The position numbers and the translations under genes were made by a program. Of a stretch of 64,000 nucleotides of DNA, positions 62,306 through 64,000 are shown piece by piece; position 1 is the first letter of the stretch; each line of letters starts with the position of its first letter. Under the pieces are notes generated by a model that did no database searches, had not been told where the DNA came from, and was given only the letters and a program-made list of their open reading frames with translations. The stretch is from positions 36,467 through 100,466 of the IMG/VR virus record IMGVR_UViG_3300036780_000119; one strand, 5' to 3'. This DNA is from a virus.

Positions 62306-62565
62306 AAACACCAGCGGCGTGCGGCACCCGCTCGGGCTACATGCGGCACAAACGCGCCGGAGAAGACCCGTGCGCGGCGTGCGTGGAGGCGAACCGGGCC
62401 TACTTCCGGGCGTGGCGGAAAACCCACCCGAACGTGTACAGCCGCCTGTTCAGCCGCGGCGCGGCCCGCAACCGGGCACTGACCCGGCTCGCCCGCGAGC
62501 AGCCCGCACGGTTCCGCGAACTGTACGCCGACGAACTCGGCGCGGAGGAAAGGAAAGGCGGATGA
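62302..62565 (+). CDS. Small zinc-binding actinophage protein
   Basis: CGTRSGYMRH..PCAAC motif. Confidence 0.7.
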   Translation: MKTPAACGTRSGYMRHKRAGEDPCAACVEANRAYFRAWRKTHPNVYSRLFSRGAARNRALTRLAREQPARFRELYADELGAEERKGG

Positions 62566-64000
62566 CGGGGCCGGCGGTCGGTGAACTGTGCGCCGGGTAC
62601 GGCGGCCTGGGCATGGGCGTGACAGCGGTGTTCGGCGGGCAGGTCGTGTTCACCGCCGACAACGACCCGGGCGCGGCGGCGATCCTCGCGCACCGGTACC
62701 CCGGCGTGCCGAACCTGGGCGACATTACCCGGGCCGACTGGACCCAGGTAAGCCCAGTGGACATCCTGCTGGCCGGGTTTCCCTGCACTGATCTTTCGTG
62801 CGCTGGTGCACGAAAGGGTCTTCACGGCGGCACCAGGAGCGGAATCTGGGCCAATGTCGTCCTGGCCATTGCAGCGCTCAAGCCTCCGCTTGTTGTGCTT
62901 GAGAATGTTGCCAACCTTCTATCTGGAGGTGACTGGATTGACGAGCCTATTGCCCGATGCGTATGTGGCTGGCCTTATCGACGGCGAGGGATGCATACAT
63001 GTCAGCGGCAAGAAGAAGAACTTCGCCACTGTAGTGACCGTCGGGATGACCGTGAAGGCGATGGACATTCTCACGGCCCTGCACAGGCAGTTCGGGGGCT
63101 CTCTCCACATGTCGCGGGCGGCGACGGGGAAGTGGGACGAGGCGCACGCCTGGACGATCTCGGGACAGGCCGCGTCCGTGATGCTGCGCCAGATCGCGCC
63201 ACATCTCGTGCTGAAAGCGGAACAGGCGCGCCTCGGGATCCGGCTGGAGGACATCAAGTCGTTGCTGCCGAGGCGCCCGAACAAGCTGGGTTGCGTGTGG
63301 ACGGATCATGCGAGGGATCACTGCCGCACTATCCAGCGCAGAATGCAGGAGCTGAATGCCAAGGGGCCGAGTGCGCACCGGGAACCTGTGACACCTGCTG
63401 GATGCCGGAAAATTGCCCGGCTTGTGGGCGGCCAGTGGGTGACGGATCAGGGGGACCTATTTTCCGACCTTGGATGGGCACCGTTCAGGCAGACCTGGCC
63501 GAAGTCGGGTTCGATGCGCAGTGGTGTGTTGTACGAGCATCCGATGTCGGCGCCCCCCACCGGCGGGAACGGGTTTTCATCCTGGCGTGGCCTGCTGCCG
63601 ACACCAGCGGCGGGGAACTTCAACGACGGGGAGTCGCCGGAATCCTGGGAGGCACGCAGGCAGGCGAACCTGGCGAAGGGCATCAACGGGAACGGCCAGG
63701 GGACTCCACTGGCGATGGCCGTGCAGCTGCTCAAAACCCCAACCGCCCAGCTTGCGGTGAACGGCGGGAGCCAGCACCCAGACAAACGCCGGGAGGGCGG
63801 CCACGGGCCGACGCTGGCCGACCAGGTGGAGTGCGAGCTCCTGCCGACGCCCGGCGACCCGGCCCAGATTCATCAGGCCCGGGGCGAGGGAGGCCACTCC
63901 GACCTGGCCAGCGCGGCAATGTGGCTGGGCCAGGACCCGGCGCTGCTGCCGACCCCAGATGCGTCGATGGGCACCGGGGGCCGGGTGTCGGCGACGCCGG
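62562..64000 (+). CDS. DNA cytosine-5 methyltransferase, catalytic (alpha-type) polypeptide; runs off the window; not in ORF track
   Basis: LCAGYGG (I), GDIT (III), AGFPCTDLSCAG (IV), LENV (VI), VGAPHRRERVFIL (VIII); no stop codon from 62562 to the end of the window. Confidence 0.92.
   Translation, partial: MTGPAVGELCAGYGGLGMGVTAVFGGQVVFTADNDPGAAAILAHRYPGVPNLGDITRADWTQVSPVDILLAGFPCTDLSCAGARKGLHGGTRSGIWANVVLAIAALKPPLVVLENVANLLSGGDWIDEPIARCVCGWPYRRRGMHTCQRQEEELRHCSDRRDDREGDGHSHGPAQAVRGLSPHVAGGDGEVGRGARLDDLGTGRVRDAAPDRATSRAESGTGAPRDPAGGHQVVAAEAPEQAGLRVDGSCEGSLPHYPAQNAGAECQGAECAPGTCDTCWMPENCPACGRPVGDGSGGPIFRPWMGTVQADLAEVGFDAQWCVVRASDVGAPHRRERVFILAWPAADTSGGELQRRGVAGILGGTQAGEPGEGHQRERPGDSTGDGRAAAQNPNRPACGERREPAPRQTPGGRPRADAGRPGGVRAPADARRPGPDSSGPGRGRPLRPGQRGNVAGPGPGAAADPRCVDGHRGPGVGDA
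62938..64000 (+). CDS. LAGLIDADG homing endonuclease fused to a methyltransferase beta-subunit-like region, overprinted in the +1 frame; not in ORF track
   Basis: GGAGG at 62925-62929, TTG at 62938; AYVAGLIDGEGCI..QFGG..PHLVLKAEQA..ELN, then TWPKSGSMRSG and LLPTP/LLKTP repeats. Confidence 0.85.
   Translation, partial: MTSLLPDAYVAGLIDGEGCIHVSGKKKNFATVVTVGMTVKAMDILTALHRQFGGSLHMSRAATGKWDEAHAWTISGQAASVMLRQIAPHLVLKAEQARLGIRLEDIKSLLPRRPNKLGCVWTDHARDHCRTIQRRMQELNAKGPSAHREPVTPAGCRKIARLVGGQWVTDQGDLFSDLGWAPFRQTWPKSGSMRSGVLYEHPMSAPPTGGNGFSSWRGLLPTPAAGNFNDGESPESWEARRQANLAKGINGNGQGTPLAMAVQLLKTPTAQLAVNGGSQHPDKRREGGHGPTLADQVECELLPTPGDPAQIHQARGEGGHSDLASAAMWLGQDPALLPTPDASMGTGGRVSATP

Follow-up and report, generated by a model that had tools for sequence, protein, structure and literature searches.

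A LAGLIDADG homing endonuclease cassette that appears to be dual-coded within, and read through by, a viral C5 methyltransferase gene

How can a homing endonuclease gene lie inside the conserved part of another gene if nothing seems to remove it from the message or from the protein? The question is raised by a C5 methyltransferase gene at the end of a 100,466-bp virus contig from a soil metagenome (IMG/VR record IMGVR_UViG_3300036780_000119), of which we analysed the last 64 kb, record positions 36,467 to 100,466; this whole stretch of 64,000 nucleotides is called the window below, and positions are counted from its first letter. To our knowledge, homing endonucleases are thought to persist in genes only by being removed with an intron or an intein, or by splitting the gene. 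The analysis suggests a different arrangement, to which we assign a probability of about 0.8: an unspliced LAGLIDADG cassette would be dual-coded with the methylase gene, the methylase being read through the cassette and the second chain of the enzyme being fused to the nuclease.

The methylase frame (frame A) starts with an ATG at 62562 and is free of stop codons as far as the end of the window. It matches the Pfam family PF00145 with an E value of 2.9e-29, the match being split over two stretches. Motifs I (ELCAGYGG), IV (GFPCTD) and VI (ENV) come first, then approximately 160 codons, which have no counterpart in relatives, and then motifs VII/VIII (FDAQW...GAPHRRERVF). The end of the window is the end of the contig, and the gene resumes at the contig start (L002 in our numbering of loci), where motifs IX/X (FVEWLMGLP, GNGCVPQQ) are in frame A and where frame B and frame A end at stop codons at L002:589 and L002:783, respectively. 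Motifs I, IV (PC), VI (ENV), VIII (QxRxR-like) and IX/X, all found in frame A, place the protein among the C5 methyltransferases, and in tblastn searches the part with motifs I-VI was 53-55% identical to actinophage DNA methylases. The AlphaFold2 (AF2) model of the frame-A protein had predicted local distance difference test scores (pLDDT) of 86-97 in the methylase core (88-94 for motifs VII-VIII) and below 50 for residues 138-280.

The same DNA in the +1 frame (frame B) encodes a single-motif LAGLIDADG protein (YVAGLIDGEG), which continues without a stop into the sequence TWPKSGSMRSG and LLPTP repeats. The G+C content of third codon positions (GC3) marks the coding frame as A to about 62700, as B over the nuclease (0.85-0.95) and the LLPTP region (0.82-0.93), and as A again over motifs IX/X. 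A preliminary description of this stretch, made from the sequence alone, had pointed out both the uninterrupted methyltransferase frame with its extra residues between motif VI and motifs VII/VIII and the LAGLIDADG protein with its GGAGG, running on into TWPKSG and LLPTP; the former is borne out by the frame-A motifs and the PF00145 match in two stretches, the latter by the frames, the profile searches and the predicted fold.

The nuclease belongs to the I-CreI type. A single sequence did not reach the gathering score of the Pfam family LAGLIDADG_1 (18 bits, cut-off 23.1). A profile made from five copies matched I-CreI, I-MsoI and I-CvuI in the PDB with E values of 1e-7 to 1e-14, and the AF2 model of the nuclease, based on 42 lineages, had a pLDDT of 93.6 and the alpha-beta-beta-alpha-beta-beta-alpha topology, for which Foldseek returned I-CreI and its relatives with a probability of 1.00 and a template modelling (TM) score of about 0.65. 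The family profile and the modelled fold thus still assign the type where the single sequence does not. Two residues are invariant in the 42 lineages: E17, the acidic residue of the motif, and K93, the equivalent of I-CreI K98. The homodimeric enzymes I-CreI, I-MsoI and I-CvuI, which are encoded in group I introns, have the fold, the single motif, its acidic residue and the Lys that follows the second beta hairpin in common with the window nuclease, at approximately 20% sequence identity. They are intron-borne, whereas here there is no intron, the nuclease is overprinted on the host frame and it is usually fused C-terminally to a methylase chain. In the window the nuclease would start with the TTG at 62938; an alternative is the frame-B ATG at 62905, within the ENV codons. 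This ATG (62905-62907) arises from the Asn-Val codons (AAT GTT) of the motif. It recurs in many lineages without a Shine-Dalgarno sequence, and may be the usual start of the nuclease.

The arrangement is not confined to this contig. A tblastn search located the nuclease, at this site and with 50-51% identity, in the Mycobacterium phage DotProduct and in phages of Gordonia that belong to the genus Vividuovirus (Bibwit, Ailee, Sedona, Keitabear, Lennon and others). Scans of IMG/VR, of GTDB genomes and of JGI metagenomes (for the metagenomes, the best 80 of 228 relatives) added approximately 100 loci. The order methylase N-terminus, nuclease, motifs VII/VIII was present in 57 loci, and in all but one of these the nuclease was in the +1 frame, motifs VII/VIII were back in frame 0 and frame A was stop-free over the full span. 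The third frame contained 2-19 stops in these 56 loci, and 8-9 in the window. An IMG/VR locus, L013, has the nuclease at the same site and in the same +1 frame.

To estimate how often an open frame A would arise by chance, the nucleases were clustered at 80% identity into 45 lineages, and their codons were shuffled synonymously, which keeps both the nuclease protein and its codon usage. Frame A was stop-free across the nuclease in 45/45 lineages, as opposed to 2.3 expected from the shuffling (sum of log10 P = -89.6). The lineages span GC3 values from 0.44 to 0.92, and because stops are avoided down to 0.44, the openness of frame A is not an artefact of high G+C content. Among 34 related LAGLIDADG genes located outside methylases, used as controls, the corresponding frame was never stop-free (0/34) and a CxC was present in one. 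For the window copy alone the synonymous shuffles gave P = 0.016-0.036. The statement of the preliminary description that the methylase (alpha) frame is left open holds in all 45 lineages, and there is, as judged by sequence comparison, selection on both frames across the nuclease.

The comparison also revealed conserved cysteines in the methylase frame. Over the LAGLIDADG motif frame A reads C-x-C-G-[WG], hence the first Cys pair overlaps the motif itself. The CxC requires a wobble T in the codon preceding the Ala/Val of the motif, and TAT for the Tyr of the motif. The wobble T is present in 42/44 lineages though the residue encoded by that codon varies (D, L, H, I, A, P, N, S and others) and the overall frequency of T at third positions is 0.13; the Tyr is encoded by TAT in 42/44 lineages, compared to 31% TAT at other Tyr codons. 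In the two lineages with TAC, frame A reads C-x-x-C. At the far end, directly before motif VII, frame A contains a C-[PE]-x-C-G-[RG] of zinc-knuckle type in 43/44 lineages; in a frame-A alignment of 30 lineages C285 was invariant and C288/G289 were at least 90% conserved. Both knuckles (CxC or CxxC, and C[PE]xCG[RG]) were present in 44/45 lineages, 1.9 being expected by shuffling. The locus L061 has no CxC at the motif and no CxxC directly upstream of motif VII. Insert-free methylases have zero cysteines in the corresponding loop. We infer that the four Cys residues bind one zinc ion, closing the base of the loop. Of the bracket proposed earlier, CVCG on one side and CDTC..CPACG on the other, CVCG and CPACG are the conserved elements, whereas CDTC occurs in this copy only. 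A separate observation concerns gp38 of the cultured, finished Streptomyces phage Darolandstone (L005 759-2453): it has an extra insertion of approximately 65 residues between motifs IV and VI, with the pattern CGNC...HDHATC, which may be another metal-binding loop.

What is the frame-B sequence downstream of the nuclease? Relatives assign its LLPTP region to the methylase. In the Mycobacterium phages Daenerys and prophiT49-1 the LLPTP region is in frame with all ten motifs, gp22 of prophiT49-1 being a single-frame relative. In Gordonia phage Geodirt, Arthrobacter phage DrYang and Streptomyces phage Lilbooboo the LLPTP region and motifs IX/X are in the +1 frame, and this chain is recorded as a second methylase gene overlapping the first (Geodirt gp4, DrYang gp78 and Lilbooboo gp33). 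The window segment 63412-63596 corresponds to the annotated start of Geodirt gp4, and in a tblastn comparison with annotated methylases the LLPTP region of the window was 50% identical to that of Darolandstone and 37% identical to DrYang gp78. The succession of frames A-B-A is found, as in the window, in Darolandstone and no fewer than 11 further lineages. In 30 lineages frame B is conserved both over motif VII and upstream of it (approximate consensus LVGG.W.T.Q.DLFS...FS.TWP.SG.MRNG...SS.LPTP), and because it is conserved even where frame A is a variable loop, a real second chain appears to overlap motifs VII-VIII. We found no published description of such a long overlap over motifs VII-VIII in actinophage C5 methylases.

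The insert sits exactly at the 5' end of this second chain. As proposed in the preliminary description, the nuclease is fused to a beta-type chain: there is no stop between the two in 39/45 lineages, the window included, so the second chain would still be expressed, from the start signal of the cassette. A few copies, those of Bibwit, DotProduct and L013 among them, have a stop at the end of the nuclease and, immediately after it, an ATG restarting the second chain. If the fusion is functional, the nuclease could borrow the DNA-recognition region of the methylase, or dimerise it.

The segment in which motifs VII-VIII are dual-coded (window 63412-63596; L012 2785-2984; L003 2823-3060) carries W.T.Q.DLFS...TWP.SG.MRNG in the +1 frame, and a Met in it relies on rare codons of the methylase frame that end in T (GAT or TAT). 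An 11-nt indel between Bibwit (L008 ~3215-3245) and Geodirt (L012 ~3075-3095) shifts the recognition region and motifs IX/X from one frame to the other: they are in the +1 frame in Geodirt, which has two chains, and in the main frame in Bibwit, which has one, thus closely related viable phages differ in having a split or a fused enzyme. Upstream of the insert, frame B seemed to resemble the N-terminus of the second chain, but this likeness was rejected as a by-product of the conserved ENV codons.

Two C5 methyltransferases made of two chains from overlapping frames are known. In M.EcoHK31I the small chain is encoded wholly inside the gene of the large chain, in another frame, and in M.AquI the large chain has motifs I-VIII and the small chain motifs IX-X (PMC2836561, PMC3404938). 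The parallel with M.EcoHK31I drawn in the preliminary description stands for the layout; the enzymes are not homologous, and their chains contain different motifs. Unlike in either enzyme, the second chain here begins in the interval from motif VI to motif VII, runs over motifs VII-VIII and holds the whole recognition region. Motifs IX/X belong to the second chain in some lineages and to frame A in the window, a division of motifs that differs from both, and neither M.EcoHK31I nor M.AquI carries a nuclease.

Evidence on mobility came from comparing phages with and without the insert. Bibwit, which has it, and Geodirt, which does not, are 97-100% identical in the flanks. Directly 5' of the insert there is a divergent tract of approximately 85 nt, in which the differences are mostly synonymous, and identity returns sharply at the 3' junction; approximately 20 nt of the target are repeated at both ends of the insert. 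The pairwise identities of nucleases and of their host methylases are weakly correlated (Spearman 0.25), with outliers in both directions: L009 and L045 have 98% identical nucleases in 81% identical hosts, whereas L028 and L071, with equally similar hosts (81%), have nucleases of 55% identity. The query with the methylase N-terminus matched 1197 cultured-phage records and the query with the nuclease 56, in all contexts. Presence and absence in near-identical flanks, together with the decoupled divergence, indicate homing as the probable mode of spread. In the window GC3 of frame A falls from 0.93 to 0.40-0.68 over the approximately 220 nt preceding the insert, and this low-GC3 tract, comparable to the divergent tract next to the Bibwit insert, is possibly a co-converted flank. 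We infer the exact borders of the insert and the co-conversion tract in the window, because a search of IMG/VR found no close insert-free relative of this methylase (none above 47% identity).

These data also bear on the alternative that survives best, namely that the LAGLIDADG domain is not selfish but has been domesticated as an N-terminal DNA-binding, dimerising or nuclease module of the second chain. The frequent in-frame fusion would agree with this, as would the age and wide occurrence of the arrangement and the purifying selection on the domain, which follows from the invariance of its catalytic Glu and Lys. We nevertheless regard domestication as improbable: the domain is present or absent among near-identical phages, next to a co-conversion-like tract, its divergence is decoupled from that of its host, most cultured-phage members of the family lack it (1197 N-terminal matches compared to 56 for the nuclease), and the variants with a stop followed by ATG part the nuclease from the second chain.

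Could the insert be removed by splicing? The preliminary description had seen no intein termini and had inferred a nuclease that spares its host gene without splicing, and our searches agree. Frame A had no match to a Hint or intein family (PF00145 was the only match), the insert is predicted to be disordered and the nuclease is out of frame. Rfam searches over 62300-64000, with E values up to 10, detected no intron, and gave only two chance-level matches (ilvH and MEG3). A group I intron with a LAGLIDADG open reading frame (ORF), in which the open host frame would be incidental, might be suspected from the fact that the homologous I-CreI and I-MsoI are intron-encoded, and from the record of Bibwit, in which the methylase is a two-piece join around the nuclease gene. 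However, the nuclease ORF fills essentially the whole insert and leaves no space for a ribozyme core, and a spliced insert needs neither a stop-free host frame in 45/45 lineages nor four conserved cysteines in that frame. We consider the intron explanation very unlikely.

Several observations weigh against a dual-coded, read-through cassette. The annotation of the Bibwit methylase as a join, as if it were spliced, is one of them, but it looks like an assumption of the annotator since selection on frame A would serve no purpose in a message from which the insert is spliced out. Apart from the avoided stops and the Cys residues, the hydrophobicity, charge and composition of the frame-A loop do not differ from those of the synonymous shuffles. 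AF2 gave pLDDT values of 52-66 at the knuckles, which neither confirms nor rejects the clasp. A clear Shine-Dalgarno sequence (GGAG/GAGG) with a start codon precedes the nuclease in only 13/45 lineages, the window included. Across the LLPTP region, composition accounts for the absence of stops in frame A, which is not significant (P ~0.2 in the window, and likewise not significant in Darolandstone); frame A is open there, yet it looks non-coding. A -1 slippery site was not found at the switch from frame B to frame A (L002 ~440-480), the lone heptamer, G GGA AAC, being out of the frame required. Because motifs IX/X are in frame A and the repeats in frame B, with no frameshift signal and with an openness that is not significant, this copy might not make an active methylase. 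The enzyme of the window may consist of two chains in a new split, in which motifs IX/X of frame A would join the recognition region encoded by frame B, it may depend on an unrecognised recoding event, or this may be an inactive copy.

Among sequencing runs, one of DNA, probably the source, and none of RNA contained this sequence. The Logan assembly of that run reproduced 62300-64000 with zero indels, an agreement that is not independent because the sample is the same. That the copy is decaying or mis-assembled, its A-B-A frame changes and absent nuclease stop being mutations or errors and its openness a result of G+C-richness, is hardly credible: the compositional openness over the LLPTP region, the lack of a visible frameshift signal and the 57-nt indel in the repeats at the contig ends would fit, but another assembler obtained the same sequence from that sample, the same layout recurs in Darolandstone and at least 11 other lineages, the stop-less fusion is the majority state and stops are avoided down to a GC3 of 0.44.

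The dual-coded, read-through cassette would work as follows. A mobile cassette occupies the DNA encoding the loop that lies between motif VI and motif VII, where neither RNA splicing nor protein splicing would remove it. In the +1 frame it would be translated, from an internal start (here the GGAGG and the TTG at 62938), into an I-CreI-like nuclease, presumably active. In the methylase frame the cassette DNA, kept free of stops, would be read as a disordered loop of approximately 150 residues, whose base would be tied by one zinc ion held by the Cys pair of CVCGW and the CPxCG knuckle, so the catalytic domain could still fold and methylate DNA. Spread would occur when the nuclease of the cassette cuts insert-free alleles and the cassette is copied in during repair. 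The balance of the evidence tips slightly in favour of seeing here a third way, besides introns and inteins, in which a homing endonuclease can reside inside a conserved coding sequence, three proteins sharing the DNA of the cassette or its borders: the nuclease, a read-through host with an evolved zinc clasp, and a second chain fused to the nuclease.

It is worth comparing this family with elements described earlier. Actinophage methylases that conceal an HNH endonuclease in another reading frame, their own frame being open and a splicing element absent, have been reported with the ShiLan domain and related insertions (Arsenault, Gosselin and Gogarten 2025, PMC11855218). A lone in-frame LAGLIDADG endonuclease was described by Gosselin et al. 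in 2023 in a methylase of another family (PMC9957025). The ShiLan-type elements resemble ours in that a nuclease lies in an alternative frame of a phage methylase whose frame is stop-free, in that there is no intron or intein, in their patchy occurrence, and in that the host-frame reading is predicted to be looped out. The zinc fingers described for the published HNH cases are in the HNH frame only (PMC11855218, PMC9957025). Read-through of the host was suggested for ShiLan, the absence of stops being the sole evidence (PMC11855218). The differences are that the ShiLan-type nuclease is an HNH enzyme, whereas here it is a LAGLIDADG enzyme of I-CreI type; that the host here is a C5 methyltransferase with two overlapping chains; and that here there are four conserved host-frame cysteines at the base of the loop and a nuclease usually fused to the second chain. 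In the literature that we searched, neither this LAGLIDADG element nor a cysteine clasp in the host frame nor a fusion to an overlapping methylase chain was described.

A nuclease gene within a phage gene has another precedent: Friedrich et al. reportedly described in 2007 an insertion of mobE in nrdA of phage Aeh1, a free-standing homing endonuclease gene splitting its host gene. There too a nuclease gene without intron or intein lies inside a phage gene the function of which is retained. The difference is that nrdA is cut into two separately translated pieces, whereas here the host frame appears to be read through the nuclease DNA.

With stops avoided in 45/45 lineages, the present family gives much stronger sequence evidence for translation of the host frame than ShiLan does, and the host frame retains its four cysteines by way of otherwise rare codons ending in T, even at positions where the nuclease residue differs. 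The family would also illustrate how one mobile element can meet the needs of two overlapping host genes simultaneously, and may offer a natural design for putting a large loop into an enzyme. Cultured, harmless phages are available as material: Bibwit and Geodirt grow on Gordonia terrae and DotProduct on M. smegmatis. Coordinates of the features in the window are collected in Table 1.

Table 1. Features of the methylase locus at the end of the window
Feature	Position	Strand	Evidence
Frame A (alpha), C5 methyltransferase motifs I, IV, VI	62562..62936	+	PF00145, tblastn, AF2; ENV at 62901-62909
Low-GC3 tract in frame A, directly 5' of the insert	62712..62936	+	GC3
GGAGG Shine-Dalgarno, 8 nt before the nuclease TTG	62925..62929	+	sequence
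Frame B LAGLIDADG homing endonuclease domain, I-CreI type	62938..63370	+	profile, AF2, Foldseek
Frame A 5' knuckle CVCGW, over frame-B DAYVAG of the LAGLIDADG motif	62958..62972	+	wobble T
Frame A stop-free loop, approximately 150 codons, alternative reading of the nuclease	62973..63413	+	stops, AF2
CDTC in frame A, this copy only	63387-63398	+	sequence
Frame B N-terminal segment of the second chain (IARLVGGQW..DLFS..TWPKSGSMRSG), continuous with the nuclease	63412..63596	+	conservation
Frame A 3' knuckle CPACGR	63414..63431	+	30-lineage alignment
Frame A motifs VII-VIII, dual-coded with the N-terminal part of the frame-B second chain	63432..63596	+	tblastn, alignments
Frame B target-recognition region, LLPTP repeats, on to L002:589	63597..64000	+	GC3, tblastn

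In this methylase family, related LAGLIDADG genes were seen at two further sites, one after motif VIII and one before motif IV, all of them in the +1 frame (L031 681-1106, L032 1339-1749, L034 2495-2902; L093-L099). No stop interrupts the host frame across the nuclease in the copies that come after motif VIII, and in L032 the motif is overprinted as CGVCGG. Gordonia phage Getalong has a remnant, gp85/gp86 (L011 2122-3212), in which a +1 nuclease comes after motifs I-VI and leads directly to motifs IX/X, which use the third frame; it lacks motifs VII-VIII as well as the recognition region, yet its host frame has remained free of stops and reads CVCGW.

The database records disagree on this gene: it is a two-piece join in Bibwit, one ORF running through the insert in DotProduct and three genes in Sedona, the chain with motifs I-VIII is not annotated in Geodirt, and RefSeq copies label the LAGLIDADG gene as 'HNH endonuclease'. 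Users of such annotations should be aware that these methylase genes may appear as a join or as two genes, or may lack one chain.

The two ends of the contig (window 63724-64000 and L002 1-335) overlap with 77% identity and differ by a 57-nt indel within the LLPTP repeats. The genome is probably circularly permuted or terminally redundant. Both repeat paths are present in the Logan assembly, branching at 63848 with depths of approximately 18 and 4; the population carries two variants of the methylase recognition region that differ in repeat number. Upstream of the methylase, at 61228-62141, there are three tandem paralogous small ORFs of approximately 97-109 amino acids each, a local gene triplication, which have a similar first segment (ETAD.IL..LD.HGW.Q) and the end NDxPxTSEEDV.L.IK.C/AVE.

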